Of a DNA stretch of 64,000 nucleotides, positions 14,879-56,885 are shown piece by piece. The position numbers and the translations under genes are program-made. Location: sequence record PV400810.1; one strand, given 5' to 3'. This DNA comes from Pseudomonas phage vB_PaeM_GXNNA8. Numbering within the stretch: the stretch's first letter is position 1; each line of letters opens with the position of its first letter. The notes under the pieces are model-generated. The model did no database searches and was not told the origin of the DNA. It saw only the letters and a program-made list of their open reading frames with translations.

Positions 14879-14893
14879 ATAATGTAGGTCTGA
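14879..14893 (-). promoter_or_regulatory. Conserved phage promoter-like motif (plus-strand reading TAATGTAGGTCTGA), 28 bp upstream of the minus gene starting at 14850
   Basis: Member of a family of 9 or more similar elements, all at the same orientation and position relative to minus-strand gene starts. Confidence 0.5.
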
Positions 14894-14899
14894 AAAATC

Positions 14900-15412
14900 A
14901 TGGAAACGCCTGACGACACACCCGAAAAGGAAAAGAAGAAAGCCAGTCCTTTGGATACGGATAAAATGCAAACGGTTCTGGAAGAACTCCGTAAGGCAAT
15001 GACTGGTAATCTGGAGGATATCGAACAGGAAGAACTGGTTAAGGTAGTACAACGTAACCGGGCTTTCATTCTAGAATACGCTATGTCTGCGTATTTGGAT
15101 AATCCGAAGAATGCGCATCTACTGGAAGGGGTGACCCAGATTATTGCGCAGATTGAAAAGACCGTACGGGATGACCGTAAAGAGCGGGCTAAGAAGAAAG
15201 AGAATGAAGGCAACCGACTGGCCTTTAACCAAATGCTGGAGGCTATGGAGCGTATTCAAAGTGGAGGGATTAAACTCCCCACCTTTGAGTTCTCCCATTT
15301 CGTACTGGATCCCTCTAAACCCCTGCCTCTGGATCCTACCTTGAGTCCCATTACGGAAGAAGAGCTGGTGCAGGGGAATCAGCTGGTGGATATCGATGGT
15401 GAGGAAATTTAA
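14900..15412 (+). CDS. Hypothetical acidic/charged helical protein (170 aa)
   Basis: ORF with E/K-rich composition. Followed by a bidirectional terminator at 15427-15450. Confidence 0.6.
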   Translation: METPDDTPEKEKKKASPLDTDKMQTVLEELRKAMTGNLEDIEQEELVKVVQRNRAFILEYAMSAYLDNPKNAHLLEGVTQIIAQIEKTVRDDRKERAKKKENEGNRLAFNQMLEAMERIQSGGIKLPTFEFSHFVLDPSKPLPLDPTLSPITEEELVQGNQLVDIDGEEI

Positions 15413-15426
15413 CCAAGCGAACATAA

Positions 15427-15450
15427 CTGGGTGGGGATCTCCCCACCCAG
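15427..15450. terminator. Bidirectional terminator between 14900-15412 (+) and 15463-16245 (-)
   Basis: CTGGGTGGGG-ATCT-CCCCACCCAG. Confidence 0.65.
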
Positions 15451-15462
15451 TTAATAAAGGGG

Positions 15463-16245
15463 TTATTCCGTCAAGTAATCATAGAAACCTTTATTGATCG
15501 GAATCAATTTCAATACAGGAGCTAGCGCAATGGATTGGGCGAAGATACGGTCATAAATACTCCCTTCTAAATACTCGGTTTCTTGAACCAGGAGATCTGG
15601 AACCAAAAACGCCGTATCAGGAATAGGCGGTTTACCGACGTTCTCAAAGAAGGACTTGTAGTCTTCATTCAACAGGAAGTCATATTTGAAGACATAATCG
15701 AACTGTCGATAGTAGGAGGGTGTCGCATTGATAATGTCGTCATCAACGGTCTTCACCTCCACCCGGTAGCCTAACCGAGTCTTAACGTGCTCGATCAACT
15801 CCTCCTTAAGGGCTGTATCCATGACATAAGGGAAACAGTTGATCGTGAGGGTAATCCCTTTGATCTCGATAGGTTTATCGGTCAGTTGTTCATGCTCGAT
15901 AATCACCTTAACGAAATTAGACAGGAACCCTGTAGGGTAATACCCGTACCCCCAATCCCGTAAGCTCCGTTTCTGATAGAGTTCCCTGAAAATCTGTCGG
16001 GTGAACCCAAAGAACGGATAATTAAACGTATCCATCCTTCTCTCCCTGTAGTTCTTCTCAATATGAAGTTCCCACAGGGTGTCCCCTTGAAGCCGGCGTT
16101 TCTCTTGATACGCTGCAAAGGCTTCATCACTCAAGCTGTTTTCATCGCTAACAGCCATGTCTCGTGTTAACCACTTCTGAATCAATCCCCTCCGATAATC
16201 GAAGAGACTGTCCACATCCGCGTAGGCGGTTAATACCCGATTCAT
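15463..16245 (-). CDS. Hypothetical protein (260 aa)
   Basis: Last gene of a 4-gene minus-strand operon (17752 to 15463) with overlapping stop/start codons. Confidence 0.65.
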   Translation of the reverse strand: MNRVLTAYADVDSLFDYRRGLIQKWLTRDMAVSDENSLSDEAFAAYQEKRRLQGDTLWELHIEKNYRERRMDTFNYPFFGFTRQIFRELYQKRSLRDWGYGYYPTGFLSNFVKVIIEHEQLTDKPIEIKGITLTINCFPYVMDTALKEELIEHVKTRLGYRVEVKTVDDDIINATPSYYRQFDYVFKYDFLLNEDYKSFFENVGKPPIPDTAFLVPDLLVQETEYLEGSIYDRIFAQSIALAPVLKLIPINKGFYDYLTE

Positions 16246-16655
16246 GCCTTACGTCCTTTAGATGGGGGTACAATGAAATGACTGGTATACACCCTAAACG
16301 CTAAAGCAATCAAGAAACTCCAGCGTTTATATTCATTCTCATCGGAAATATCCAGTCCATTACCCCCTTCAATGGTCTTAAAGACTTCCTTGAACATTTG
16401 ACTGAACTGACTGAAAGCCACCTGATGCTCACCCAAGCGGGTGATAACCATCATTTGAATACTGACCCAACTGTCGAAGAGATCACTCTTACTTCCCACT
16501 TGGGACATAAAGACTGAATAGGCTTCGTTAAAACAGATCAAAGGACGGTTGATAAGCGACGAGAAGTTCTGAATAATGGGAGAAGGAGCTTCTCCGGTTG
16601 ACAGGTCTAACCATACTTCTTGAATGGTATTCGACAAATGAATGAGTTTATCCAT
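16242..16655 (-). CDS. Hypothetical protein (137 aa)
   Basis: 4-nt overlap with the downstream gene (translational coupling). Confidence 0.6.
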   Translation of the reverse strand: MDKLIHLSNTIQEVWLDLSTGEAPSPIIQNFSSLINRPLICFNEAYSVFMSQVGSKSDLFDSWVSIQMMVITRLGEHQVAFSQFSQMFKEVFKTIEGGNGLDISDENEYKRWSFLIALAFRVYTSHFIVPPSKGRKA

Positions 16656-16664
16656 GGGGAGAGA

Positions 16665-17342
16665 TCACTTCTGGTTAAAGTTAGTGTCGATATGACGACC
16701 ACGCATGAGGTGGTGGACCGTGCTCAGCACCTTGGTACCCGAGCCTTTACGCAGGCTCCCATTGGTGGTAGTCTTACCGGTGGTCAACAAATCGTTCTTG
16801 TACGCCTTAAAGGCCTCTTGGTCGCCGCCTTTAACGTTGTACAGTTCATTCGCCATGATGTTCAAACCCAGGTTACGCAGTACGGTAACCTCAGGACCGC
16901 TGATCCCCGCACTCCGGCTGTCCCCCATGGGTTGACCGGTGAGGTCATCGATTTCGTAGTCGTTCTTAGCCGCACTGAACTTCTTGGACAACATCTGACG
17001 TTGTTTACGGACTTCAGCACGTCCTACAATCGCCTTATAAGCGGTCAGTGACTTGATCCCGGTGTCTTCGTCGTAAATAACCAGTTGGTGTTCAACTTCA
17101 ATACCGAACTGTTTACAGAGTCTCATCAGGTTATCAAAATTCAGTTTCTCTTCAGGAACAAAGTTACTGGCCCAAATCGCCAGGGGATTCCCTTTTTCCA
17201 ACCACTGGACGAAGTCTTCAAAAGCGTCATCGTCCATAGTGGCAAAGAGTTTCTCATAAATCTTCTTATTGCCACCCCCTTTGGTCAGAGGGCCAAAGGC
17301 TTTATACACATGTTCTTCAAATGCCTTCCGGTTACCAGCCAT
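16665..17342 (-). CDS. Hypothetical protein (225 aa)
   Basis: ORF in the operon. No recognisable motif. Confidence 0.6.
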   Translation of the reverse strand: MAGNRKAFEEHVYKAFGPLTKGGGNKKIYEKLFATMDDDAFEDFVQWLEKGNPLAIWASNFVPEEKLNFDNLMRLCKQFGIEVEHQLVIYDEDTGIKSLTAYKAIVGRAEVRKQRQMLSKKFSAAKNDYEIDDLTGQPMGDSRSAGISGPEVTVLRNLGLNIMANELYNVKGGDQEAFKAYKNDLLTTGKTTTNGSLRKGSGTKVLSTVHHLMRGRHIDTNFNQK

Positions 17343-29695: not shown

Positions 29696-30052
29696 TCAAA
29701 CAATCTCCCATAACGAATAAATATCCTCTCCCTCACAGGTTTTTGCCCGGATCTTTAATCCAGTCGGTGTCGGTATCAATTCAGTCACCACACCTGGGAG
29801 CCCTTCAACCCGAACAGGGTCACCTACCGATGGAATAGTCCTTATTTGGGTTCCACCTGTGTTCCCACTGGCTATCGCAGCCTGTATGAGCATGATAAAT
29901 TCAGCATTCATACTCCGCCCATTGGCCGTTGCGCGTTCGCTAACCTTATCGCGTAGCTCAACTGGCATCCATAATACAAACTTATCGGCCGTTCGACTGT
30001 TACCTTTCAGAACACCTTTCATCGCTTTCTTGACTTGACTCATAGATAACAT
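29696..30052 (-). CDS. Arc/MetJ-type ribbon-helix-helix DNA-binding protein with a C-terminal extension
   Basis: FVLWMPVELRDKVSERATANGRSMNAEFIMLIQAAIA matches P22 Arc (FNLRWPREVLDLVRKVAEENGRSVNSEIYQRVMESF). Promoter motif 58 bp upstream. Confidence 0.7.
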   Translation of the reverse strand: MLSMSQVKKAMKGVLKGNSRTADKFVLWMPVELRDKVSERATANGRSMNAEFIMLIQAAIASGNTGGTQIRTIPSVGDPVRVEGLPGVVTELIPTPTGLKIRAKTCEGEDIYSLWEIV

Positions 30053-30916: not shown

Positions 30917-31351
30917 CTATTGGGTGACGACTTCTTCAGCCAGGTCCACAGGTTCACCGAAGGCCGGTGCGGTTTCGTCGGTGTAGTCGAAGATGCGTAC
31001 ATGCATCAGTTGACCACCCGACAACGCCCACTCGGATTGCTCCTTGTTGTAGGCTTGGATCGCTTCTTCCAGCCCACCGTGTTGGTGGGTGAAGATGGTA
31101 CCACCGACCGACCAGCTGGAGAGGGTCACCGAACCATCGGCTTCCTTGTGCAGCGAGTTCAGGCAGAAGTAGGAACCATGGCACAGCAGCACCGGGGTAA
31201 CCCTTTCGCCCTTCACCAGTGCGGCGATACCAGCAGCACGATAAGGTCCACGGCTACCACCGTGGGTGTCGATCACATAACCGTTGTTGGCTTTAACAGC
31301 TTCCAGGACGGCGTTGTAGTTGGCGATGGTGAAGTTCGATTGTTTAGCCAT
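30917..31351 (-). CDS. Hypothetical protein (144 aa) in the GC-rich island
   Basis: ORF about 47 bp downstream of promoter motif 31399-31418. GC about 57%. Confidence 0.55.
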   Translation of the reverse strand: MAKQSNFTIANYNAVLEAVKANNGYVIDTHGGSRGPYRAAGIAALVKGERVTPVLLCHGSYFCLNSLHKEADGSVTLSSWSVGGTIFTHQHGGLEEAIQAYNKEQSEWALSGGQLMHVRIFDYTDETAPAFGEPVDLAEEVVTQ

Positions 31352-40498: not shown

Positions 40499-40531
40499 CC
40501 CCTAGGAGTAGCCCTTATGGGCTACTCCTAG
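40499..40531. terminator. Bidirectional terminator between 39525-40481 (+) and 40540-41040 (-)
   Basis: CCCCTAGGAGTAGCCC-TTAT-GGGCTACTCCTAG. Confidence 0.65.
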
Positions 40532-40539: not shown

Positions 40540-41040
40540 TTATTCCATTAACAAAACCGTGTAGATCTCTCCTCTGTCAATTTCCTTAAACCCAACTTTC
40601 CGGTAGAAGTTGATACCAGCTGTATTCTGGGTAAAGCATTGAACGTAGAGGAACCGGTTCACAGGATGTCCACCCCGTTGTAACTTGGACACCATAATCC
40701 GCCCTAAGCCTAGCTTCCGGAAGTCTTCTTCAACAAAGAGTGAGGTGATCTTGTTCTTAACCACCGCCAGATATCCCACGGCTTCTCCCAAGTGAGTAAC
40801 GAGTACTATCTTGTCGGTTATTTTGAAGAAGTCTTCGTACCGTTTCTCAATAACGGAGGGGTGGGGATTTTTACGGGCGGAGGGTTTAAACAGCTTACGG
40901 GTTGTTTTAGTACCAATGACGAGATGGAGTTCGTGGTGAAAGAGGTTTTCATACAGTGGTTTGAGTCTCTCCTTTAAATCGTCTGTAAAGGCACTTCTAG
41001 CGATAATTCTGATCTGGTAATGGGGTAGGGTACCTTTCAT
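40540..41040 (-). CDS. GNAT family N-acetyltransferase
   Basis: Motif A LFVEEDFRKLGLGRIMV (R-x-x-G-x-G) and motif B NTAGINFYRKVGF. Confidence 0.8.
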   Translation of the reverse strand: MKGTLPHYQIRIIARSAFTDDLKERLKPLYENLFHHELHLVIGTKTTRKLFKPSARKNPHPSVIEKRYEDFFKITDKIVLVTHLGEAVGYLAVVKNKITSLFVEEDFRKLGLGRIMVSKLQRGGHPVNRFLYVQCFTQNTAGINFYRKVGFKEIDRGEIYTVLLME

Positions 41041-41987: not shown

Positions 41988-41999
41988 GATGTAATCCTC

Positions 42000-43592: not shown

Positions 43593-44174
43593 TCAAAGTC
43601 CCACCCGAGTGAGTAGGAAGGGGACTGAAGTGTTCATCCCAGTCCGGAGATCTTGGTAATTCACCAAACCGAACAAAGGATGAGGCGTTTTGAAGGTAAT
43701 CCCTACGTTGTAAGGATGGCCGTCTACGGTCACGTCAATACCGGGGGTGCGCATGGGACGGAGAATACTCAGGATCGTTTTGGGATAATCGCGTTCCAGA
43801 AACTCGTCCTGCAATTTGTATACCGTTTCCGACACAGTAATACCCAACCGTACGTAGTAGTACGGGATGTTGTTATTCCGGTTGAACGCGAAGACCGCTT
43901 CTTCGCCGTACGCTTCAATATCTCGGTTATTCAGAATTCTGCCCGATACAAAGTTGGGGGTCTTAACGATGTTGTCGAGCAGATCGAGCGCGTAAATAAA
44001 CTCTTTGATCAACTGGGGGTCGAGGCCAAGTTTGTCAAACGTTTTCACAAACGCGGGATTAAAGGCATCCCGGATCTCGTGCAGAGGAAGATCATCGTCT
44101 TCCTTGCCGGGGGACGTAGAAAAGTTACCCCTTTTAGCAGTACTCATACTCATGGTGAATATTCCTAATGACAT
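43593..44174 (-). CDS. Hypothetical protein (193 aa)
   Basis: ORF. Promoter motif 62 bp upstream (44236-44257). Confidence 0.6.
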   Translation of the reverse strand: MSLGIFTMSMSTAKRGNFSTSPGKEDDDLPLHEIRDAFNPAFVKTFDKLGLDPQLIKEFIYALDLLDNIVKTPNFVSGRILNNRDIEAYGEEAVFAFNRNNNIPYYYVRLGITVSETVYKLQDEFLERDYPKTILSILRPMRTPGIDVTVDGHPYNVGITFKTPHPLFGLVNYQDLRTGMNTSVPFLLTRVGL

Positions 44175-44257: not shown

Positions 44258-44294
44258 CACTGGAATTGAAATGAGGTACGAAGGAGAGGTAAAC

Positions 44295-44320
44295 TACCCA
44301 GTGGGCTAGCCCACTGGGTA
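44295..44320 (-). terminator. Terminator 3' of gene 44331-44966
   Basis: TACCCAGTGGGC-TA-GCCCACTGGGTA perfect palindrome. Confidence 0.6.
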
Positions 44321-44330
44321 GTTATCTGGC

Positions 44331-44966: not shown

Positions 44967-45088
44967 TGCTTTATCCTCTTAAAGGTGGTCCAATGGGAGT
45001 AAGTCAAAAGAAGTTACAAGACTCACTGCATAGGATGTCTACCTCCTTCAAATGCTTCGTCATCCATCGATTTCCTTAAAAAAAAAAT

Positions 45089-45119
45089 AAAGGAGTAGGG
45101 GTCTTCCCCCTACTCCTTT
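45089..45119 (-). terminator. Terminator 3' of the GroEL-like gene
   Basis: AAAGGAGTAGGGG-TCTT-CCCCCTACTCCTTT, preceded on the plus strand by an A10 run. Confidence 0.6.
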
Positions 45120-45128
45120 ACAAACCCC

Positions 45129-46811
45129 TTACCGCACCTTAACCGCCGACAACTTCTCCCCTAGGATCAGTGTCTTCGTAGTGGCCAAGATCTTAGCGGT
45201 TTGGAGTCCGCCTTTCAGCGCAGTGATAGAGGCATACGCGGTGTCATAAATACCCAATCCCTCCGGGGTACCAATCTCACCAGTTGCCAGATTCATGACG
45301 GTCGGCGTATTGAGCCAATCATCATTAAAATGGAAACTCCCATTTTCCTTATACAGTGACGTGTCCTTGAACAACAGCTTATGCTGAATAGTGGACAGCC
45401 GCATCAACTCATTGGCAACGCCTGAGTTGATATACCGCTTAGCAAACTCAGCGCTCTGGTCTTTATCTTCGAGGCCTTCCTTGATCGTACCGAAGACCGC
45501 CTTAACCAGGGATACACCACCGCCAGGAAGGATACCGTTCTCCAAGGCGGAGCGAATGGCTTTCACCACATCCTCGTACCGGTCTACCCGTTCCTTGACT
45601 TCAGAATAGGTTTCACCGCCTACGGAAATGGTGATCAACTTACCCCGTAGGGTCCGAATACGCCGTTCGTTGTACCGGGCGCGTACGGAGAACTTATCGC
45701 TGAGGCTAAACCCCTCCAACAGTTCCTCAATACCCCGAGCATGTTGTTCGATCCGGTCTTCATCCTTAGGTGTGGTACTCTTCAGGATAGACCGATTCCC
45801 CCCCAGTTCCAGTTGGCCGTGTTGGCCATTGATCGAATGGGCATCCAACTTGGTCAGGTCCGCTACGTCACTGAGCATAGGGGCGTTCAGCATGACCGCG
45901 ATGTCTTGCAGTTCGGAAGTCCCAATTGCACCACCTACCGGCGTACTCAACGGAATCAACCAAGGGCGCCCATCTTCTACCAGGGTTGGGTGCGCCGCAT
46001 TCAATTGCATCAGGGTCGAGTTAGCGGCTTCTTCGAAACTTCGTGCAATCAGCAGGATGGGAAGGGTCAGGTGTTGTTTGTGAGTTTTCACAAGGTGATT
46101 CACCCCATCAATCAACTTCTGGGTGTCTTCCTTGTCAATCCGACGATCGATAACGAACGCCGTAAACCCTGTTAATTCTGTCACACCCCCTTGATGGCCT
46201 TTCGCAAACCAGGGATTCGCGTAGAACATACGGATGGTACGCCCTGTGGTTTGTTCGATCTGGTCTTCGAAGTTGACCCCTTCCTTGAGTTCAATATCCG
46301 GATAACTCCCTTTATTCTTCGCATAGAGGTCGCTGACCAGTCGGGCGAGCTTTTCATCCTGGTTAGACGAGGTCAGTGCCACTTGATACAACCGAGGGTC
46401 ATCCACTTCCACTCGTATCGCCATGGATTCCAAACGTTGGATAACCCGCTCTACCAGGTCTTCAATGTTCCGGTGGTGTTGGAAGCCTGGGAAGTCCTTG
46501 AACAGGTGATAGAGCGCATGGGTCAGCATGATGGTGGTGGTAGTGCCATCCCCGCATTCCTCATCGGTCTTCGTAGCCGGCTCGGTAATTACCCGGTTCA
46601 CCAATTCATGGGCTTCATCTGCAAAGCGAATGGAACGGGCTACCGTCACCCCATCCTTGGTGGTCTTGGTGGAGACCCCATTCTTGATCATCACCAACTG
46701 ACCATTCGGACCCATGGTCGAAGTGACGGCGTCATACACCTCACTCAAGACCTGTTTAATAATCCCTTGGGCTTCTTCACCATGTACCAGCAGCGTTTGA
46801 GACATCTTCAT
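45129..46811 (-). CDS. GroEL-like chaperonin (Cpn60 family), phage-encoded
   Basis: 560 aa. VTSTMGPNGQLVMIKNGVSTKTTKDGVTVARSI...GDGTTTTIMLTHAL aligns with GroEL VTLGPKGRNVVL...ITKDGVSVAREIEL...AGDGTTTATVLAQAI. AGGAG SD. Terminator at 45089-45119. Confidence 0.9.
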   Translation of the reverse strand: MKMSQTLLVHGEEAQGIIKQVLSEVYDAVTSTMGPNGQLVMIKNGVSTKTTKDGVTVARSIRFADEAHELVNRVITEPATKTDEECGDGTTTTIMLTHALYHLFKDFPGFQHHRNIEDLVERVIQRLESMAIRVEVDDPRLYQVALTSSNQDEKLARLVSDLYAKNKGSYPDIELKEGVNFEDQIEQTTGRTIRMFYANPWFAKGHQGGVTELTGFTAFVIDRRIDKEDTQKLIDGVNHLVKTHKQHLTLPILLIARSFEEAANSTLMQLNAAHPTLVEDGRPWLIPLSTPVGGAIGTSELQDIAVMLNAPMLSDVADLTKLDAHSINGQHGQLELGGNRSILKSTTPKDEDRIEQHARGIEELLEGFSLSDKFSVRARYNERRIRTLRGKLITISVGGETYSEVKERVDRYEDVVKAIRSALENGILPGGGVSLVKAVFGTIKEGLEDKDQSAEFAKRYINSGVANELMRLSTIQHKLLFKDTSLYKENGSFHFNDDWLNTPTVMNLATGEIGTPEGLGIYDTAYASITALKGGLQTAKILATTKTLILGEKLSAVKVR

Positions 46812-46847
46812 ACTCCTGTTAAACCATACCTAATTGCATTACACCTG

Positions 46848-46868: not shown

Positions 46869-46869
46869 T

Positions 46870-47559: not shown

Positions 47560-47598
47560 ACACCCTCCTGCCAATAAGGCAGGAGGGTGGGTCGTTAG

Positions 47599-47859
47599 CT
47601 ACTTCCGGACCAGGTAGTACGCTCCCCCAATCCGTTCGAACCGGTAACTCACCCCTTTGTTGCTAGCGGGGACGTCCGCATTCACTTCAATCTTGTTGCC
47701 CAGGTTGAAGGCAGCCAGGACTTTACCAACCACATCGTCAGCGGTAACCACCTCGCCCTCTACCGGGTTAATCACGTGAATACCTTCTGCTTTCAGTTGG
47801 TCCGACAGGATAGCAAAAGCAGCCAGACCCAGTTTTTGTTGGATTTTGATGGTAGTCAT
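47599..47859 (-). CDS. Hypothetical small protein (86 aa)
   Basis: ORF. Not recognised. Confidence 0.5.
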   Translation of the reverse strand: MTTIKIQQKLGLAAFAILSDQLKAEGIHVINPVEGEVVTADDVVGKVLAAFNLGNKIEVNADVPASNKGVSYRFERIGGAYYLVRK

Positions 47860-47930
47860 TCAGGTTCCTTATAGGTCATTAACGATTGAGTTGTCATTCC
47901 GAGGTAAAGAATAGGAGCGGGTGTTCGGAA

Positions 47931-48479: not shown

Positions 48480-48933
48480 TCATTTTTCTCCGTACAGAAC
48501 CCGACACAGCGGGGTTAAAAGGTTTCCAACCGCCCAGTAACTTGATTTCGATTTTGTTATTCTCATTGAACCGTACAGCGGGCTTAATAAACGGTTGAAG
48601 TTCTTCATCCAGATTCCGGTAATTAGCCGACTCATTCCGGTGGAAGACATAGTCATCGATGACGTCGTCTTCTTCCTTACGCAGTTCGTTAATAACCCCG
48701 ATCAGTGCTTCGACATCATAATCCGGGAACCCTGGAGCGACACCCATAATCCAGCGAGGGTTCGGTTTACCATCCAACGTGGTATGAGGGACGGTCTTCA
48801 ACACGACCGATACCACGGTTTTGAGGTAGTCCGTGGTTACATCCTTGATGAGGGCGTTGGTCTCCTCTTGACTCAAGAGAGGCTCATGTTGACGTTTGAA
48901 GACCCGTTTAATCCACTGTGTGAACACATTCAC
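48454..48933 (-). CDS. Hypothetical protein (159 aa)
   Basis: ORF overlapping its neighbour by 26 nt. Confidence 0.5.
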   Translation of the reverse strand: MNVFTQWIKRVFKRQHEPLLSQEETNALIKDVTTDYLKTVVSVVLKTVPHTTLDGKPNPRWIMGVAPGFPDYDVEALIGVINELRKEEDDVIDDYVFHRNESANYRNLDEELQPFIKPAVRFNENNKIEIKLLGGWKPFNPAVSGSVRRKMNEDKHFTA

Positions 48934-48936
48934 TAT

Positions 48937-49215
48937 TCACCTCTTCTTACCGCGTGTCTCTAGAACAAACCGCCCCTTCCGTATCGCAAACTTAAAACTG
49001 GCTAGCTGTTGTGGCGTCAGGGAAAGTGACGGATCCTGTAAACGAAGCTGGACCCCAATAGGGTTATTACCACTGAAAGTATACACGTACCCTATTAGGG
49101 TTTCGTCACCTCCCCTCGTCAGAGTTACCACACGGACCCCCACATCCAGCAATTGGGTTTTCAACACCGCTCGCTGGGAGTCTGAGAGTCCGTGTTTAAC
49201 CTCAACCTTTACCAT
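48937..49215 (-). CDS. Hypothetical small protein (92 aa)
   Basis: ORF. Confidence 0.45.
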   Translation of the reverse strand: MVKVEVKHGLSDSQRAVLKTQLLDVGVRVVTLTRGGDETLIGYVYTFSGNNPIGVQLRLQDPSLSLTPQQLASFKFAIRKGRFVLETRGKKR

Positions 49216-49541
49216 AGCCCATTTTCGTCCTTGAAACTCTTGAGCGTGGAGGTGGTGTTTTCGACCCTCGCTTCGAATGCCTGGAGAAGGTCTTTATAGA
49301 GCAGCTCCAGGCCTGCCTGGTACTGTTCTTCTCGGACCGAGACCTCTCGGTAGTCTTTGGACCTGTACCCGTAGGTCCGCGAGGCATCGCTCACCCGCTG
49401 CATACTGAAAAGTATTAGCTCCAGTACGTCACTCGATTTCTCTTGGATCTCTAGAGTCGTACGTGCCTGTTGGTTGATTTCACTATACCCTGAGGTAATG
49501 TGTTGCATCATCAAAGGCGTGGGAATAAATTCGACTGTCAT
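49209..49541 (-). CDS. Hypothetical protein (110 aa)
   Basis: ORF. Confidence 0.45.
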   Translation of the reverse strand: MTVEFIPTPLMMQHITSGYSEINQQARTTLEIQEKSSDVLELILFSMQRVSDASRTYGYRSKDYREVSVREEQYQAGLELLYKDLLQAFEARVENTTSTLKSFKDENGLW

Positions 49542-49549
49542 ACGTCACC

Positions 49550-49777
49550 TTAAATGTAAAGAGGTTGTTCTTTCGGAATTAGCATGTCCTTGTACAAGAA
49601 CAAAGTGTCCCCTGTCTTAATACCCGGAAGGATACCTTTAATGAAAAAGCAAAGGGCGCCGTGGGCGATAACAATACCCGTGTCTTTGACTGCCTTTACT
49701 TTAAAAATGTCGTACGGGGATAAGTCCGCTAATTCCTCCGGTTTTAACACGAGATGAATGTTGGGAAGCATCGTCAA
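49550..49777 (-). CDS. Possible small protein (75 aa or shorter)
   Basis: As listed, the ORF overlaps the 3' end of 49701-50171 by 77 nt in another frame. The true start is uncertain. Confidence 0.3.
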   Translation of the reverse strand: MTMLPNIHLVLKPEELADLSPYDIFKVKAVKDTGIVIAHGALCFFIKGILPGIKTGDTLFLYKDMLIPKEQPLYI

Positions 49778-50171
49778 CGTCGCTTCCTCCTTTAGGGATG
49801 AATGAACAGTGCGTAAACAGCGCTTTATCGCTGAAAAACGTATCCGAGTCTTCTACCAAGCGACTGATCCCTATTTCAGGTTGCTCGCCCACTAAGTAGA
49901 AGTACAAAATCTCATTGCGTTCCGCATTCAGGTAGGTTACGACCGTGTCATCAAAGTCGTAGTCTCGGGGTTCCACCCCGATAAACAAACGCCCTTGGTA
50001 GATTACTCGGTCGGCGGTGAGGTCGAACGTATTAACCTGGAGACTCATGGACAGGGAATGGAAACGCTCAGGGTCTTGGGTAAACCCGTATTGGTGACAG
50101 ACAAAGCTGTCTTCGTTGGCCTTTACAACCAGAGAAACCAGGAGCGTGGTGATCAAAACAATCCATTTCAT
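49701..50171 (-). CDS. Secreted/periplasmic hypothetical protein (156 aa) with N-terminal signal peptide
   Basis: The internal start MKWIVLITTLLVSLVVKANE (signal-peptide-like) has AAGGAG upstream. The ORF-track start at 50246 would overlap the upstream gene. Confidence 0.55.
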   Translation of the reverse strand: MKWIVLITTLLVSLVVKANEDSFVCHQYGFTQDPERFHSLSMSLQVNTFDLTADRVIYQGRLFIGVEPRDYDFDDTVVTYLNAERNEILYFYLVGEQPEIGISRLVEDSDTFFSDKALFTHCSFIPKGGSDVDDASQHSSRVKTGGISGLIPVRHF

Positions 50172-50181
50172 ACCGTTCTCC

Positions 50182-50742
50182 TTAAAACAATTGTTCCAGT
50201 GTGACATTTTTATCCACGTCAGAAAGGTGATTCCGGAAACCGTCAACGATGACCGCCAGCTTATCGAGGAAGATACGTTCGAGGTCAGGGTTATTCAGCG
50301 TGGTCGAGAAAACCATTTCATTGATGTCTCTACCAAATAACTCGACTTTCAACGCTGCGCCCTTAATCTTCCCGTGGATCAGGATGGGGTATTCTTGTTG
50401 GAGTACGAAGGAGCAGTATTCGGGTACGCTCTTATACCCACCCCTCTCGTACTCTCGAATCTTTTGTTTAACCCAGAACTGTAAGTTCTCGAACAGTTCA
50501 ATGACTTCCAAGACCTTGTCGTGGTAAGCTTTCAGTTCCCGTGGATCAGTTAGTTTCTGGGGATCGATGTACCCTACTCGAATGATTTCACCCATTTTCC
50601 CGAAACTGAAACCCGTTATCAACTTGAGTCGTCCGTCCTTGGTTTTAATCGCCGTGGATTCATAGACCCCGTGGACCGAACGGAAGACAGGAGGAAGGAC
50701 GCGGTTACTGAACACAATCGTAGTCATCTTAGACTCCAACAT
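50182..50742 (-). CDS. Hypothetical protein (186 aa)
   Basis: ORF. Confidence 0.55.
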   Translation of the reverse strand: MLESKMTTIVFSNRVLPPVFRSVHGVYESTAIKTKDGRLKLITGFSFGKMGEIIRVGYIDPQKLTDPRELKAYHDKVLEVIELFENLQFWVKQKIREYERGGYKSVPEYCSFVLQQEYPILIHGKIKGAALKVELFGRDINEMVFSTTLNNPDLERIFLDKLAVIVDGFRNHLSDVDKNVTLEQLF

Positions 50743-50773
50743 TGTTGCTAGGAAGTGAGTAGGAAGTAAGGGT

Positions 50774-51256
50774 TTAATCCAGGAGAGATCGCACGCCCTT
50801 TAAGGCCTGTTCTTCATGTTGGCTATCTTCCTTAAAGATAAAGCCATTCCGTTCGTAGAAGCGACGCGCGGAGGGATTCCACGCCATTACGGTGACAAAG
50901 ATCGGATGACCCAGCTTGATGCGGTGGAATTGTTCAACCAGAACCTTACCGACGTGCTTGTTCCGGTACTTCTCTTCTACAAACAAGACTTCGATGTCAT
51001 TGGGGCGTTCGTAGGCGGACAGCAGCATCCCGATGGGCGTATCCTCATCCAAGGCCAGAATACAGAGATCCGTATCCGCGAAGAGCTCATCATAAGCGTT
51101 TGCCGAGTTTGGGGCTTCGTATTGGTCTTTGAGGTGGGCGGGTATTCCCGACAAGGCAAACTCGTAGTCGAACAGTCGGGTAGAGAAGTCGATGATGGTC
51201 TCCCGTATCCCCTCAATCTGATGAAACCGGTGGAGAATGTCTAAACGAATTGTCAT
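50774..51256 (-). CDS. GNAT family N-acetyltransferase (second copy)
   Basis: Motif A LFVEEKYRNKHVGKVLV and motif B NPSARRFYERNGF. Shares LFVEE.(F/Y)R with the GNAT at 40540. Confidence 0.75.
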   Translation of the reverse strand: MTIRLDILHRFHQIEGIRETIIDFSTRLFDYEFALSGIPAHLKDQYEAPNSANAYDELFADTDLCILALDEDTPIGMLLSAYERPNDIEVLFVEEKYRNKHVGKVLVEQFHRIKLGHPIFVTVMAWNPSARRFYERNGFIFKEDSQHEEQALKGVRSLLD

Positions 51257-51283
51257 AGGGCGTGTCCTATCTTAATACGGATG

Positions 51284-51307
51284 AACAGGAGGGATGCCCC
51301 TCCTGTT
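51284..51307 (-). terminator. Terminator 3' of gene 51320-51766
   Basis: AACAGGAGGG-ATGC-CCCTCCTGTT. Confidence 0.55.
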
Positions 51308-51319
51308 CTGCACCGGAAG

Positions 51320-51766
51320 TTAATTCACACGACAGGGCGCTATGGTGACGACCCGGACAATGGGGTTCTCATCTTCCTCTTCACTGCTGACGGTGGGATC
51401 ATCAGTAACGAAGAGGAGGAAATAAGGAGTTCCTACACCGTTGAACTTCTTAAACAGCATGATGGTGTCATTATCGGCATAGTTCCCCGTCTTCGAAATC
51501 AAAGGTTCTATCGTCAGGATTTGATCTTCCTTGAAGAGTGAATTCGCTTTGATTACATATCCCCGAGTCGTTCGAAGCACTACGGTCCTTTCCCACTGGA
51601 TGGGATTGTCCGTTATGACTTCATCACTCCCCTCAACGGTATCCACCTCGTTATCAGTGTACCCTTCACAGGTGTAGGTCTCAGGACCGTTGAGCGCGCT
51701 CTCACGGTTAACCGCACCGAACGCTACCACGGGGAACAGCAGAATTGCAAAGATAAAGTGTTTCAT
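51320..51766 (-). CDS. Secreted hypothetical protein (148 aa) with signal peptide
   Basis: MKHFIFAILLFPVVAFGAVN at the N-terminus. Terminator at 51284-51307 lies 3' of it. Confidence 0.55.
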   Translation of the reverse strand: MKHFIFAILLFPVVAFGAVNRESALNGPETYTCEGYTDNEVDTVEGSDEVITDNPIQWERTVVLRTTRGYVIKANSLFKEDQILTIEPLISKTGNYADNDTIMLFKKFNGVGTPYFLLFVTDDPTVSSEEEDENPIVRVVTIAPCRVN

Positions 51767-51872
51767 GAACGCAGAACTCCTTATTCTCTTTAGTTCAGAA
51801 CATTACTTCGTTTTCTTCAACAGTGCCCGTCTGAACAAGAACTGTGTAACTTGGGATTTCCCATACGAAGCG

Positions 51873-52046
51873 TTAACTTGAGGTAAGTCGTACATCTTCG
51901 TATTGAAACACGGAACTTCTGTATGACGGAAGCTCGTTGGCAACGGGTATTTCTTGAATTGGCGTAACAGGGACATTTTGTTGACTCTCCTGGGTCTTTA
52001 AGGATTGCTCACGTACCCATTCAGCTATTTCACGTAGAGTTGACAT
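51873..52046 (-). CDS. Small ORF (57 aa) not in the ORF track, translationally coupled to the upstream gene
   Basis: The ATG at 52046 directly follows the TGA of 52047-52256 (TGAATG). Open for 57 codons to a TAA at 51873. Confidence 0.35.
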   Translation of the reverse strand: MSTLREIAEWVREQSLKTQESQQNVPVTPIQEIPVANELPSYRSSVFQYEDVRLTSS

Positions 52047-52256
52047 TCAGTTCTTATTACCCGAGAGAAAACGAGTGGTGAGTTCAACGGCATCCTTACC
52101 AAACCGACGCTCAGCAGCTAGGAACCCAGCCCCGGGAGATGTTCCTATCTCCATTGTCATCACGAAGCTGATACGAGCCAACCACAACGCTTCCCGATCA
52201 AACTGGAGACCCAGTGGGCTTACGGGTGGACGGTTAATTGAACGTCGTATGCTCAT
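52047..52256 (-). CDS. Small hypothetical protein (69 aa)
   Basis: 4-nt overlap with the upstream gene 52253-52561. Confidence 0.4.
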   Translation of the reverse strand: MSIRRSINRPPVSPLGLQFDREALWLARISFVMTMEIGTSPGAGFLAAERRFGKDAVELTTRFLSGNKN

Positions 52257-52561
52257 GCTGTTTCCCCCTTAGTCTGTTTAGCTCGTAAGGCAAGAATCGC
52301 TTTCCCTGCATTGCGAGCGGTGGGTGTGGTGACCCTGTTGATAATCCGGTACCAAGTGATCCAAACAGGATTCAGTTTACCCGACTTCGTCACCAGATCT
52401 GGTTCAGGCATCTTCTTGACCCGTTCCACCTGATGATAACTGACCTCCTTAGGTTTCAGGCCGTATTGGTTACCGTACCACGTTCTCCATTTAGGATTGA
52501 ACTCTCCGTTAGGAAGAATCATAGGAACTTCTTCCTCAGGACTCCCAGGGGATTTGGTCAT
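52253..52561 (-). CDS. Hypothetical protein (102 aa) with internal NPxW.TWY repeats
   Basis: NPKWRTWYGNQYG and NPVWITWYRI form a repeat. Confidence 0.5.
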   Translation of the reverse strand: MTKSPGSPEEEVPMILPNGEFNPKWRTWYGNQYGLKPKEVSYHQVERVKKMPEPDLVTKSGKLNPVWITWYRIINRVTTPTARNAGKAILALRAKQTKGETA

Positions 52562-52575
52562 CGTAATACCCGTTC

Positions 52576-52980
52576 TTAGTTCTGACGATCAGCCTGATGT
52601 TCAACCAGGAATTTGATGAACTCCTTCTCATTACCCGGTTGATTGGGGTCCGTGTTGAACACCATGGGTGTTTCCCCCTGTCTTTCCAGACGGAGACCGG
52701 ACGTAAAGGGAACGTAAAACAATTCGAACCCTGTATCGAAATCGTAATAGACCCTGAACTTGAGATTCCCGACGTACCCTTCACCGAACGCTCTCCCGAA
52801 GACGTACTGGAATTTAATCCACGCTTCCAGTCCCGATTCAGTCCCACGCTCACAACGACTCATCAAGTATTTCTCATGGTTCCGTATATGGTCTTTGTTC
52901 GTAACGTAGTCGACAAACTGCGAGATCGGCCCCTCGGTGCATTCATCGTCTCGGTCAGTTTTCAACGAACGGTCTATCAT
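52576..52980 (-). CDS. Hypothetical protein (134 aa)
   Basis: ORF. Promoter motif 59 bp upstream (53039-53059). Confidence 0.55.
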   Translation of the reverse strand: MIDRSLKTDRDDECTEGPISQFVDYVTNKDHIRNHEKYLMSRCERGTESGLEAWIKFQYVFGRAFGEGYVGNLKFRVYYDFDTGFELFYVPFTSGLRLERQGETPMVFNTDPNQPGNEKEFIKFLVEHQADRQN

Positions 52981-53038
52981 GAGGTGTTACTCCTTTGGGT
53001 TAAACAATGATCGTGTCGCTCATTCATATGAATAATGT

Positions 53039-53059
53039 AGGTTTGAGAATAAATACGTT
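53039..53059 (-). promoter_or_regulatory. Promoter-like motif GAATAATGTAGGTTTGAGAAT, 59 bp upstream of gene 52576-52980
   Basis: Family member. Confidence 0.5.
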
Positions 53060-53083
53060 TTAAACTAAAAGAAATAAACACCC

Positions 53084-53116
53084 ACCACCCCAACTCCTTT
53101 TACAGAGTGGGGTGGT
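53084..53116 (-). terminator. Terminator hairpin in the 52980-53279 intergenic region
   Basis: ACCACCCCACT...AGTGGGGTGGT, 11-bp stem. Confidence 0.55.
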
Positions 53117-53124
53117 TAGGCGGG

Positions 53125-53289
53125 TTACAGGACCAAGGTATTCAGTTCGTGAGTGGGATCATCCTTAATCCGTTCCAATTCCTTCTTAAACACCTTAACC
53201 TGTAGCTTCACATCGGTAGCGATAAGGTATTCAGGAAAGGTTAAGAAGGGGTTATAGGGAACCTTGGGGCGTTCGACTTTAGGTTTCAT
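53125..53289 (-). CDS. Small ORF (54 aa) not in the ORF track
   Basis: The ATG at 53289 is 5 nt after the stop of 53279-53749. Open for 54 codons. Ends just 5' of the terminator 53084-53116. Confidence 0.3.
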   Translation of the reverse strand: MKPKVERPKVPYNPFLTFPEYLIATDVKLQVKVFKKELERIKDDPTHELNTLVL

Positions 53290-53749
53290 GGCATCCCCAT
53301 CGTTTATTCTTCAGATCCAGTAATGAATAACCAAGAATCATCGCTTCCCTGGGGGTCATGTTTTCTTCGATACACATATACATAACCCAGGCCTGACTTA
53401 CATACCGACCATTTTCCGTTTTTAATTGGGGTGGGGCGGTCCAGAAACGTTGACGGTGGGTGATGGTTTTATCGATATTGATACGCACCACATTACTAAC
53501 CGGAATAAGGTTCCTGTAATCCTGGATTCCTGACGAACGATTACGTTCTTTCCACCAACTGATCCACGCCGGTGAGGTCATAGGGGCGATGTAGAGTTTG
53601 TTATTTCTTTTCTTCGCAATAACAAAGATGGTGGGTTCATTCGGGTCCGGGGTGTAGAAGGGGGTTTCGTCGCTGTATTGCGTCATCTCGTCCAGAGATT
53701 CATTCAGAAACCGTTCAATAAAGCTTGCTTGCTTATCGGAGTTTGCCAT
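53279..53749 (-). CDS. Hypothetical protein (156 aa)
   Basis: ORF. Confidence 0.55.
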   Translation of the reverse strand: MANSDKQASFIERFLNESLDEMTQYSDETPFYTPDPNEPTIFVIAKKRNNKLYIAPMTSPAWISWWKERNRSSGIQDYRNLIPVSNVVRINIDKTITHRQRFWTAPPQLKTENGRYVSQAWVMYMCIEENMTPREAMILGYSLLDLKNKRWGCHET

Positions 53750-53751
53750 AA

Positions 53752-54357
53752 TTAACCTACCTTCTTCAACAGAGCTTTCAGTTCATTATCTGCACGCTGG
53801 CGATCTTCTTCTTCCCACTGACGTTTACATTCTTCCCAATACTCATCCTTAAAGGCATGATCAACTAGGAAGGTGATACCTGAGAATCCAAAGTCTTGGA
53901 AGAGCACAATACGCCCCCGGAAGCTTCGACGACGTTCCTTAACCATCCACGCATTCAGCGCCTGATCGATAATCGCCTGCTCTTCCTCAGGGTCCCATTC
54001 CCCATCTTGGTTACTCAACCACTTCGGGTTGGTCTTCAGGCTGAAACCATAGAGGGTTCCCTTATCAAAGATCATCCCATGGTTCCCTTCCTCAATGAAC
54101 TGTTTCATTAAGACAGGATACTGGTCCATTTCAGCGAATGCGTGTTCCAGCCAGTGAATAGGATCTTTCCCCAGAATAATGTTGCTAATAAAGGTGTCCC
54201 GAATGAACTCAGGGAGTTCAGGCAACATCCTCATGCAGACCTTCTTCATCTTCTTAGGATTACGGGTAAAATGGTCTTTAAGGTATTGGAGCGCTCGGAT
54301 CTCTTGATCGAAGTTAGGGAGCGTTGGATCGTTGACATATGCGTCCATTAATATCAA
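53752..54357 (-). CDS. Hypothetical protein (201 aa)
   Basis: ORF. Confidence 0.55.
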   Translation of the reverse strand: MILMDAYVNDPTLPNFDQEIRALQYLKDHFTRNPKKMKKVCMRMLPELPEFIRDTFISNIILGKDPIHWLEHAFAEMDQYPVLMKQFIEEGNHGMIFDKGTLYGFSLKTNPKWLSNQDGEWDPEEEQAIIDQALNAWMVKERRRSFRGRIVLFQDFGFSGITFLVDHAFKDEYWEECKRQWEEEDRQRADNELKALLKKVG

Positions 54358-54363
54358 CCTCGC

Positions 54364-54717
54364 TTATTCAGATGGATTAAGGTGATAACGAATCTGGGGG
54401 ATATGCCCATAGTCCTTCTCAAACTGGGCTTGGGAATCCCCAATAAGGGTTCTTTTATACCGCACTTTAAGGTAGACATTCTTAAGGAAATTCCAAATCC
54501 CTTTCTTTCTCTTCTCAGAATACCCGTGGATATACCCCAAGTAGAGGCAATTGAATTGGCACGAAGACAAGGAGTAATCCTTGAATTCGAGTGGAGCTCC
54601 GTAGTACCCAGCCTTATACCCCATGGTGTAGAAGAACTGATGGCTGAACTGGAGGGGTTTATGTGGTGTGTTGGATGTGTTCACGACCTTACCTCTAACA
54701 AAAATAAACACTCTCAT
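54364..54717 (-). CDS. Hypothetical protein (117 aa or slightly shorter)
   Basis: The listed ATG is only 8 bp from the promoter motif. An internal GTG with GAGGT SD (about 54681) is an alternative start. Confidence 0.5.
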   Translation of the reverse strand: MRVFIFVRGKVVNTSNTPHKPLQFSHQFFYTMGYKAGYYGAPLEFKDYSLSSCQFNCLYLGYIHGYSEKRKKGIWNFLKNVYLKVRYKRTLIGDSQAQFEKDYGHIPQIRYHLNPSE

Positions 54718-54724
54718 TACACAA

Positions 54725-54746
54725 GAATGATGTAGGTGTATTAAAA
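54725..54746 (-). promoter_or_regulatory. Promoter-like motif GAATGATGTAGGTGTATTAAAA, upstream of gene 54364-54717
   Basis: Family member. Terminator hairpin immediately beyond it. Confidence 0.45.
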
Positions 54747-54761
54747 AATAGAGAACGAATA

Positions 54762-54795
54762 CCCAACTACGAGGGAATAACCCCTCGTAGTTGGG
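54762..54795 (-). terminator. Terminator 3' of gene 54809-55558
   Basis: CCCAACTACGAGGG-AATAA-CCCCTCGTAGTTGGG. Confidence 0.6.
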
Positions 54796-54808
54796 CGCCG
54801 TCAGTCGA

Positions 54809-55558
54809 TTAACTGAGTTTAATCATGAAAGATCCGTTTTCTCCATCGACTTCGTAGCTGACATCAAAGACCTTGTTACCGTCTTTGTCATTTACAACCG
54901 ACAGGGTCTTTTTCATCAGGGGGATGAACGCTTCAGGTTGTTCCGGGTATTGGAACACGTCCTTCCAAGCGGGTGGGTTCCTCTCCTGAACCGGGAAGAA
55001 CGAAGAGAGAGGGAGAGGGTACACAGAACCACACACCGCATTCGAAGAGATATCCGAATGTTGCAAGGGTATCTCCTTGCCCAGACCATGTAGGATAAAT
55101 TTATCCCCATCGAGATCCGAGCGGACCATCGAACCGAGCAACACATGCGTGGGGATTTCGAACCGAGCACCAATCAACACCCGACCGTCGTCATACACGA
55201 AGCTTTTGAACACAAGTTTGATGAACCCGTAGATCGTAAAAACCCCGGGTTGTAGGGAAAGCTGCTTTAATCCGGGTTTACCGATGTTACTCCATATCAC
55301 CTTGCACTGGTCGAATTCCAACTGCTTACCGACCCACTCGGCATCACCAAACTGAGTGACGTACTCAACCAGAGCCTTCTGTGTACGGGTCAGTATGGTG
55401 TTGGCCAGCGCACCTCTGGTACTCCAGAACTTTACAGCGGAAATGAGGCGTTCTTTCGAATTGTAGGACACGGCACTTTTCCTTTCAGGGGTTTGGAGTG
55501 AGAGCGAATAAAATCGCCCTCGGGTTACGGAATAACAGCGACAGAGACCTCCCTCCAT
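54809..55558 (-). CDS. Hypothetical protein (249 aa)
   Basis: ORF. Terminator at 54762-54795 lies 3' of it. Confidence 0.55.
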   Translation of the reverse strand: MEGGLCRCYSVTRGRFYSLSLQTPERKSAVSYNSKERLISAVKFWSTRGALANTILTRTQKALVEYVTQFGDAEWVGKQLEFDQCKVIWSNIGKPGLKQLSLQPGVFTIYGFIKLVFKSFVYDDGRVLIGARFEIPTHVLLGSMVRSDLDGDKFILHGLGKEIPLQHSDISSNAVCGSVYPLPLSSFFPVQERNPPAWKDVFQYPEQPEAFIPLMKKTLSVVNDKDGNKVFDVSYEVDGENGSFMIKLS

Positions 55559-55577
55559 CGCTGTTATTCCGTATCGA

Positions 55578-56792
55578 TTAGAACATGGCGGTTATCGTGG
55601 CCAGAATGCCCTGGGGTTGAGAAACCGGTTCCGGTTGTGCCGTGACCTGCTCCCGAACGGAAACCGTCGCTACGGGCTCGCCTTGGGGCTGCTGAGGACC
55701 GAAGCCCAGAAGGCCTTGAGTGGTACGTCCGAGGTTGGAACCCGCCCCACCCAGGATCAGACCGATCGAACCACTCACGATGTAACGACCCGGTTCGCTC
55801 TTCATGAGGCCTTCTGCTTTCTCAGCCGCGAAGTAACCGGCCGCCGCACCCAGCCCCGTACCCACAACCGAACCGATGCTCACATTCCCACGTGATGCCA
55901 TTTCGACACCGCCGCCGATGATCGCCGCAGCAGCCGCCACCGCGCCGGAACCGAAGCCTTCTTCACGACCGCCCCGGAGGGTGTAGACAACACGTTCCTT
56001 GAAGGTACCCGGCGCTTGCCGTTGGGCTTTAGCCGCATCACGGCGCGCCTTTTCAGCTTCCACACCGGTGGCGTTGATGTCTTTTACCGCCTTGCTGTAT
56101 TGATTGATGAACTCCTGGCTGAGTTCGGGGTGGTCGTCCAGGAAGGCACGGAGCGCACCCGCCGGGGACGAGTGGTCTTGACTCTTGACGAGCTCTTCCA
56201 GTTCGGTCTTCAGGTGAGTCGGGAGACCGCCGTTGATCAGCCAGGCGTCGATAGTGTAGGACAGGATGTTGTCGGCCTTGAAGGTCACCCCCAGTACCTC
56301 GACGACCTCGTCGCTGTCATTGCTGTCGGACCAGCTGGAAGCCCCCGCCTGTTCTTCATAGGCGGCGCGGGCACCTTGGGATCGTTCCAGGAGTTGTTGG
56401 GCGAGCGGTTGGTTTTCTTCTTTCATGGTGTTCTCCAGGTGGGTCATTGCATCAGTTTCAGTGGGGGTTGCCGGAACAGCCTCTGCCTGCGAGGCCTGTT
56501 CATTCACTTCACCCATCACACGGACGGGAATGTCAACTTGCCCGGACAGTTTATCCGTTACGATCAACTTCTCCGGTTTCTTACCGGCGTGACGAACGTC
56601 GTTCATCGTAAACCGGGAACGAGTCGCCTCGTTGATCTTCTTCAGCGCAGACGGACGCTTTGCTTTATTGAAACGCGTCTCGTCGAAGAGGTGGTGGTAG
56701 ATGATCGACAGGATCTCCTCACGGTCTGTCTTTTCACCGATGTCACTCAAGACATTCGCCAGGGCGGCATTGAAGTCAGTAGTCACGCTCAT
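55578..56792 (-). CDS. Hypothetical protein (404 aa) with C-terminal glycine-zipper/membrane-like domain; GC-rich
   Basis: C-terminal GSGAVAAAAAIIGGGVEMASRGNVSIGSVVGTGLGAAAGYFAAE...GSIGLILGGAGSNLG (GxxxG/glycine-zipper-like). Local GC is about 65% against a genome background of about 50%. Promoter motif 73 bp upstream. Confidence 0.6.
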   Translation of the reverse strand: MSVTTDFNAALANVLSDIGEKTDREEILSIIYHHLFDETRFNKAKRPSALKKINEATRSRFTMNDVRHAGKKPEKLIVTDKLSGQVDIPVRVMGEVNEQASQAEAVPATPTETDAMTHLENTMKEENQPLAQQLLERSQGARAAYEEQAGASSWSDSNDSDEVVEVLGVTFKADNILSYTIDAWLINGGLPTHLKTELEELVKSQDHSSPAGALRAFLDDHPELSQEFINQYSKAVKDINATGVEAEKARRDAAKAQRQAPGTFKERVVYTLRGGREEGFGSGAVAAAAAIIGGGVEMASRGNVSIGSVVGTGLGAAAGYFAAEKAEGLMKSEPGRYIVSGSIGLILGGAGSNLGRTTQGLLGFGPQQPQGEPVATVSVREQVTAQPEPVSQPQGILATITAMF

Positions 56793-56864
56793 CTTGATAA
56801 CCCTTTTCTGTCTTTAGAAGGGAAAGTCACTTACCTGCAAACAATCCCGTTGTCTATTCACCTT

Positions 56865-56885
56865 GGTAATGTAGGTTTGTTTCAT
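56865..56885 (-). promoter_or_regulatory. Promoter-like motif GGTAATGTAGGTTTGTTTCAT, 73 bp upstream of gene 55578-56792
   Basis: Family member. Confidence 0.5.

Follow-up and report, generated by a model that had tools for sequence, protein, structure and literature searches.

A conserved element of ∼33 nt occurs nine times on the minus strand of a 64,000-nt stretch of the genome of Pseudomonas phage vB_PaeM_GXNNA8 (PV400810.1; the whole stretch is called the window below), each time ahead of minus-strand genes. These repeated elements are real and far beyond chance. They are very probably promoters for a phage-encoded, sigma-independent multisubunit RNA polymerase, most likely the polymerase that the virion carries and injects along with its DNA, as in phiKZ-like giant phages. 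While correct, the finding was already known, as the family is annotated and published for Pseudomonas phage EL and the phiKZ-type class is well studied. The additions made here are minor and consist of five sites in the window (∼12 genome-wide) that are missing from the annotation of the EL record, a longer consensus and a precise prediction of the start sites.

The window belongs to the genus Elvirus. Megablast of positions 44000-52000 identified seven Elvirus genomes with 96.6-98.0% identity, among them MIZ-Pa99 (98.0%) and Pseudomonas phage EL (AJ697969; 97.6%). The full window, with 97-98% identity to EL, could be aligned with the reverse complement of EL 132590-196008, and therefore the minus strand of the window is the main coding strand of EL.

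Nine intergenic copies on the minus strand

A 30-nt weight matrix was derived from the nine sites, and both strands of the window were scanned with it (∼128,000 positions). The core C of CTAYATYAY was located at 14887, 30120, 31408, 31940, 44247, 46857, 53040, 54735, and 56874 on the minus strand; these positions differ by no more than a few nucleotides from the nine copies listed in a first-pass annotation of this DNA. The copies scored 31.8-38.0 bits, or 24.0-32.5 bits when leave-one-out matrices were used, and the runner-up position on either strand reached 8.1 bits. In 200 shuffled sequences, the maxima had a mean of 10.9 bits and a highest value of 19.6 bits. Scores in the window were thus sharply bimodal, and a graded tail of weak copies was absent. 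A tenth, weaker copy that had been placed at 43534 reached only -10.6 bits and does not belong to the family. The degenerate string TAATRTAGRYYTGA, with which the family had been described, turned out to be too strict, since it matched exactly at only four sites (0.00 expected), and was replaced by the matrix.

All nine 30-nt sites were wholly intergenic, which has a chance probability of ∼3e-12 given that 5.2% of the window is intergenic according to a gene map made from EL-type annotation. The 3' end of the motif was measured at 29-74 nt from the start codon, in good agreement with the 28-73 bp given before, and the predicted 5' untranslated regions (leaders) are 22-67 nt long. As had been noted in the first-pass annotation, no copy was found by the matrix scan of the window before the structural genes of the plus strand, where the genes code for virion and tail proteins (phrog_3293, 16120, 3904). 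Strong hairpins (-25 to -30 kcal/mol) were present upstream of four of the nine copies (56874, 54735, 53040, and 44247), and the statement that copies usually lie just past a hairpin was therefore overstated; the folds upstream of the remaining five were weak (-3.2 to -10.0 kcal/mol).

The short pattern CTAYATYAY-N5-TG identified all nine minus-strand copies and a single plus-strand match at 57850. The latter was rejected, since it falls inside coding DNA, has a score of less than 8 bits and is not accompanied by the upstream half of the motif.

Anatomy of the element

The anatomy was taken from an alignment of the 21 sites found in the EL genome (see below) and numbered from an invariant G as +1. 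The conserved span reaches from about -30 to +3, and its extended layout of ∼33 nt, instead of the 20 nt assumed earlier, can be written as YAG-N4-TTTCAAAC-CTAYATYAY-N5-T-G, with the final G invariant and 6 nt past the core. The invariant T-G 5-6 nt 3' of the core in the window copies and the A at -29 were both absent from the earlier description.

At the upstream end Y-30, A-29 (18 of 21 sites) and G-28 (13 of 21) could be recognized, and positions -36 to -30 carried almost no information. T is conserved at -23 to -21 and is followed by C-20, AAA at -19 to -17 and Y-16, so that CAAAC at -20 to -16 precedes the core CTAYATYAY at -15 to -7. Within the core, C-15, A-13, A-11, T-10, and A-8 were each invariant in 21 of 21 sites, T-14 was present in 20, and the other positions were Y-12, T-9, Y-7, and Y-6. 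After a variable spacer follow G-2, T-1 (T in 16 of 21) and G+1, the last again in all 21 sites. G+1 is also present in all nine EL sites annotated in GenBank, and as these 19-nt features end at -6, the G is an independent observation for them.

Two co-varying subtypes could be distinguished. The majority reads ACCTAYATYAY, and four of the 21 EL sites carry GTCTATATTAC or GTCTATATCAC. The GTCTATATTAC subtype is characterized by G-17, T-16, T-12, and C-7, and P30120 and P31408 are among its four EL sites. A variant had previously been counted in three copies of the window; GTCTATATTAC was found in two copies and TATATTAC in three.

The element in the EL genome

The EL record AJ697969 contains nine features labelled as putative phage promoter, at 18631, 36030, 90601, 103608, 132472, 142913, 151700, 164008, and 181063. 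Four of them correspond to copies in the window (Table 1), and feature 132472 falls ∼100 nt past its right end. The five other copies of the window, with matrix scores of 31.8-33.9 bits, have EL counterparts that are unannotated. Over the whole genome, about 12 of 21 EL sites are not annotated in this record, and the features that are annotated are 19 nt long and omit A-29 and T-1/G+1. A consensus for EL has been published as WTTTYAAACCTACATTATY (PMC7058600, Table 2), and according to PMC7058600 it goes back to Hertveldt et al. (2005).

A scan of the EL genome (211,215 bp) with the matrix resulted in 20 sites at 13.5-36.6 bits, to which the annotated site at 18640 was added at 7.8 bits. All 21 sites are located on the plus strand, which is the main coding strand, are intergenic and have the same orientation as the following gene. 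The predicted starts lie 16-98 nt before the annotated start codon, with one exception at 314 nt before ORF074. Matches within genes were observed only at ≤12.5 bits; those at 82361 and 2830 (∼12.5 bits) were taken as chance. An even spread through coding DNA would have spoken against promoters, and this was not seen, as all sites of at least 13 bits are intergenic and co-oriented with the next gene.

ORF023, the nuclear shell protein gene of EL (phrog_4795, 1.3e-167), is preceded by the motif and followed by ORF024, an RNA polymerase beta-like gene (phrog_2987), an order that repeats the gp54-gp55 arrangement of phiKZ. The annotated site 18631 precedes ORF016, which encodes the tubulin PhuZ (phrog_4733). 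In the window and EL, sites were found before shell, PhuZ, GroEL and Arc-like genes and before blocks of ORFans, and none was found before the tail and virion genes of the opposite strand. Genes for the split RNA polymerase subunits of phiKZ type are present in the window (phrog_2986, phrog_3233) and, as ORF024 (phrog_2987), in EL, at E ≤1e-82.

Register with the early promoters of related phages

The early motifs of polymerase-encoding giant phages are AT-rich and conserved over ∼10 nt, with their centre near -10, and can be found bioinformatically for each phage (PMC7598289). For phiKZ, differential RNA sequencing identified an extended -10 box, with T-rich sequence further upstream, beyond -19 (PMC8244752). 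The element studied here likewise has an A/T-rich core, TAYATYAY at -14 to -7, and a T tract at -23 to -21. The phiKZ core given in the first-pass annotation was correct, as Table 2 of PMC7058600 gives TATATTAC as the predicted promoter of phiKZ, whose early promoters are attributed to the virion RNA polymerase. In the phiKZ sequence, TTTGAGATTTATATTAC-TAAAT-TG (TATATTAC-N5-TG) could be located 80 nt before the nuclear shell gene PHIKZ054, for which a mapped primary start site is tied to the early motif (PMC8244752), and TTTnAnnnnTATATTAC-N5-TG was also observed before PHIKZ036 and two other genes. The T-run, nA, TATATTAC/TAYATYAY, N5 and TG follow each other in the same register in EL and phiKZ, and in both the element precedes the nuclear shell gene. 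Unlike the all-A/T version of phiKZ, the majority of EL copies carry C at -16/-15 and -12 (ACCTACAT). Start sites and timing have been mapped in phiKZ, whereas those of EL are predicted.

The early promoters of phage AR9, AAATATATATTAT-(6N)-G+1, were found experimentally to be early and active without protein synthesis, and a distance of 6 nt from the element to the start site downstream is also given for phiKZ and phiR1-37 (PMC5312081). Transcripts that arise within minutes of infection and depend neither on new protein nor on the host RNA polymerase have been shown for phiKZ and AR9 only. As in AR9, the 13-nt element of EL ends at -7 with a G 6 nt downstream, and AAACCTACATTAT and AAATATATATTAT agree at 10 of 13 positions, although AR9 is a distant relative, which has uracil in its genome, infects a Gram-positive host and forms no phage nucleus. 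The bioinformatically predicted consensus sequences of OBP (BSHAWWWWWTTTYARRYAKATATTATYWWADTG), N1M2 (TBYAWWWWWTTTCARRYAKATATTATYWAAGTGWA) and 201phi2-1 (...BTATATTACDWHDGTG) (PMC7058600) are collinear with the EL motif over ∼35 nt, with matches at A-29, at TTTCA, in the core and at the GTG of -2 to +1; their ends can be summarized as ...TATTAYnnnnGTG. The majority subtype of EL and RisingSun, ACCTACATTAT, differs from them.

The same layout was found before the shell genes of RisingSun, FishSpeaker, OBP, and N1M2, which are preceded by TTTTCAACCCTGTATTATTAACGTG, GACGTCTATATTACTTAGGCG, GAAGTCTATATTATTATGGTG, and GAAGTCTATATTATTAGAGTG, respectively. GTCTATATTAY, the minority subtype in EL, is the form before the shell genes of OBP, N1M2, and FishSpeaker. 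In Erwinia phage RisingSun, TAATTTTCACACCTACATTATCTATATGTA scores 33.1 bits with the window matrix, and its predicted start is 35 nt before the GroEL gene. The motif thus precedes the GroEL genes of both RisingSun and EL, whose proteins are 40% identical. Three more sites (15.9-26.0 bits) were identified in a 41.6-kb stretch of RisingSun; all are intergenic and co-oriented, and none is located in the adjoining virion-protein module.

Among the Elvirus genomes MIZ-Pa99, PaBa1, phiRU, HHBS47_1, and EL, all eight copies covered by the compared regions were kept. With one exception, substitutions among the six genomes were found at the degenerate positions -18, -9, -7, -6, and -5 to -3, a pattern in line with constraint, but with flanks that are nearly as conserved. 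The exception was seen in HHBS47_1, where the otherwise invariant A-13 is replaced by G in the P31408 copy (L011 locus position 7425). This lowers the score from 31.9 to 24.4 bits, and the copy may be a natural promoter-down variant.

From these comparisons it could be proposed, as a doubtful possibility, that the C-containing form ACCTACATYAY is a derived subtype common to EL and RisingSun, that GTCTATATTAC is the OBP/phiKZ-like form, and that the virion polymerase, which has no sigma factor, differs in its affinity for the two or in the time at which it uses them. If true, the subtypes would define immediate-early and delayed-early sub-regulons and would form a natural specificity series for sigma-less DNA recognition by the virion polymerase.

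A second conserved element, CTATTATATGTAAA, was observed upstream of the early-type motif in four genera, at a distance of ∼190-210 nt from the shell genes of RisingSun, OBP, FishSpeaker, and N1M2. It contains TATG, the core of phiKZ late promoters, and had no match in the window with three mismatches allowed.

Proposed function and alternative explanations

The EL annotation, the published consensus and the register with mapped early promoters together support the phiKZ-type early promoter reading, and with it the earlier suggestion of a single class of phage-specific early promoter, with the early timing assigned by homology. The virion polymerase would enter the cell with the phage DNA and recognize the ∼33-nt asymmetric sites. 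The invariant G, preceded by T at -1, is the predicted first transcribed base. Transcription would then proceed leftward on the minus strand and, past a leader of 22-67 nt, reach blocks of small genes, most of which are uncharacterized. Among them are the genes for an Arc-like regulator, GNAT acetyltransferases and a GroEL-like chaperonin, and several blocks are divided by strong hairpins.

Several observations weigh against this assignment. A literature search identified no mapped transcripts, data on timing or polymerase assays for EL or another Elvirus, so that both "early" and "virion polymerase" rest on homology, and a full-text search for TATATTAC and CCTACATTAT returned unrelated papers only. 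As the Elvirus flanks are nearly identical too, conservation among six close genomes has little power. In addition, the matrix scan found no copy upstream of the RNA polymerase genes 1200..2645 and 16665..17342, which presumably belong to a different temporal class, and no copy in the window before the Acb1-like gene. The motif therefore does not explain all minus-strand transcription. Finally, YATTAY at -12 to -7 resembles the -10 hexamer of sigma-70 promoters and is at the right distance from the predicted start, and from this likeness some activity of the host polymerase at the copies is conceivable.

That the elements are sigma-70 promoters of the host RNA polymerase, with YATTAY as -10 hexamer, is nevertheless very improbable. 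The invariant A-11, the pyrimidine (T/C) at -7 and the spacing of 6 nt from the predicted start would suit a -10 element, but neither a -35 hexamer nor a TG extension (-15/-14 is CT) could be recognized, and the strongest conservation, at -23 to -13, would fall in the spacer of such a promoter. A scan of 40001-60000 with a sigma-70 consensus (TTGACA-like -35 and TATAAT-like -10 at 16-18 nt spacing) reported none of the five copies there as a site, and the sigma-70 reading was rejected. Sigma-70-type sites were depleted in this region (5 compared with 20.0 ± 4.8 in dinucleotide-preserving shuffles), which may reflect avoidance of promoters for the host polymerase. Moreover, the development of phiKZ is independent of host transcription, as cited in PMC5312081 and PMC10914365. 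A second, non-virion phage RNA polymerase that acts in the middle or late phase might use the sites instead, or both polymerases might, and the regulon would then not be exclusively early. T-1/G+1 is common to the TATG start motif of the phiKZ late promoters (PMC7598289), P53040 reads CATATGAA, and the timing assigned to EL comes from homology. However, an extended upstream consensus is missing from the middle and late promoters of phiKZ, which bioinformatics cannot predict (PMC7598289), whereas ∼20 upstream positions are conserved here in register with early promoters. The genes that follow the copies also include those for the shell, PhuZ and DNA metabolism, and no virion or tail gene has a copy before it. 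This explanation is considered improbable, if somewhat less so than the host promoters.

The elements might also be no promoters at all, but operators for a phage DNA-binding regulator, for example an Arc-like protein, or inert repeats that moved with gene cassettes. An Arc-like regulator is in fact encoded directly downstream of P30120, and three mosaic replacements or insertions adjoin copies. The motif is asymmetric, however, while ribbon-helix-helix dimers bind repeats, and orientation and distance to the start codon are fixed in 21 of 21 EL sites. It is also kept before orthologous core genes across genera, and the inserted gene 54809..55558, which is specific for the window, has no copy of its own. 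The chance that this explanation holds is regarded as very small, like that of host promoters.

Predicted transcription units

The early promoters proposed here mark the probable starts of the first transcription units of the phage. With the family known from EL since 2005 and the class characterized well in phiKZ and AR9, the practical gain is modest. The units (Table 1) hold candidates for host takeover and anti-defence, namely the Arc-like regulator, the acetyltransferases, the GroEL-like chaperonin and many ORFans. An early regulon comprising the GroEL-like gene, the ORFan block and the Acb1-like gene had been proposed in the first-pass annotation. The first two directly follow copies (P46857 and P53040, respectively), whereas the Acb1-like gene is not downstream of any copy in the window.

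Table 1. Copies of the element and RNA polymerase genes in the window. All features are on the minus strand; EL positions refer to AJ697969.
Feature	Position	Strand	Score (bits)	Sequence or subtype	Predicted start	EL counterpart	Upstream hairpin	Downstream genes or assignment
P14887	14870..14902	-	32.8	CATGATTTTTCAGACCTACATTATTCGTTTGAG	G 14872	181063-181081, annotated		ORF179 homologue 14272..14850 (start codon 22 nt past predicted start); three conserved genes of unknown function
P30120	30103..30135	-	31.8	GTCTATATTAC	G 30105	165839, unannotated		Arc-like ribbon-helix-helix gene 29696..30052 (Pfam Arc PF03869, 5.9e-14)
P31408	31391..31423	-	31.9	GTCTATATTAC	G 31393	164550, unannotated		ORF161 homologue 30917..31351; small ORFans
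P31940	31923..31955	-	38.0		G 31925	164008-164026, annotated		ORF159/160 homologues; small ORFans
P44247	44230..44262	-	33.5		G 44232	151700-151718, annotated	44323..44292, -25.4 kcal/mol	Five genes, 43593..44174 to GNAT acetyltransferase 40540..41040 (Pfam); then terminator-like hairpin 40531..40502
P46857	46840..46872	-	33.9		G 46842	149106, unannotated		GroEL-like chaperonin gene 45129..46811; ends at terminator-like hairpin + T-run 45121..45087
P53040	53023..53055	-	36.6		G 53025	142913-142931, annotated	53122..53079, -28.8 kcal/mol	∼14 small genes, 52980 down to 46870, including second GNAT
P54735	54718..54750	-	33.8		G 54720	141113, unannotated	54796..54761, -29.8 kcal/mol	ORF128 homologue (GTG start 54684) and three more genes; ORFans
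P56874	56857..56889	-	33.7		G 56859	139703, unannotated	56951..56908, -26.9 kcal/mol	ORF127 homologue 55578..56792 and window-specific 249-aa ORF 54809..55558; ORFans
RNA polymerase beta-like subunit gene	1200..2645	-				ORF184 homologue		phrog_2986 'RNA polymerase beta subunit', 1.8e-192
Second RNA polymerase beta-like subunit gene	16665..17342	-				ORF175 homologue		phrog_3233 'RNA polymerase beta subunit', 2.4e-82

The Acb1-like gene (56955..57380, minus strand) encodes a protein of 141 aa with a match to Pfam Acb1 (anti-CBASS, PF23474; 9.6e-11; score 42 bits, cut-off 27). It is located upstream of P56874, behind a hairpin, and is itself preceded by a hairpin with T-run (57441..57412). DNA ligase, RNase H and DHH phosphoesterase genes belong to the same stretch, and the promoter of ORF119, outside the window, is where this stretch begins. 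Transcription of the Acb1-like gene would have to start at a promoter upstream of ORF119, just past the right end of the window. The RNA polymerase gene 1200..2645 adjoins a gene for a 2543-aa protein with a lysozyme domain.

Within the P53040 unit, a strong, GC-rich hairpin of 12 bp (47589..47561, minus strand) was observed, which extends over the region where the ORF145 homologue starts. A clear T-run is missing, and the hairpin could serve in attenuation or RNA processing.

A 730-nt insertion is present at 54828-55557 and was not found in EL, MIZ-Pa99, PaBa1, phiRU, or HHBS47_1. The ORF inside it (54809..55558, minus strand, 249 aa) is located between the ORF127 homologue and the hairpin preceding P54735; it had no Pfam or PHROG match, and the matrix scan identified no promoter copy of its own. 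For two further segments, 30377-30926 and 53340-53826, no nucleotide homology was seen at the equivalent positions of the five relatives; they take the place of the equivalents of ORF162 and ORF129/130. As both lie within predicted early transcription units, it is concluded that this region is mosaic.

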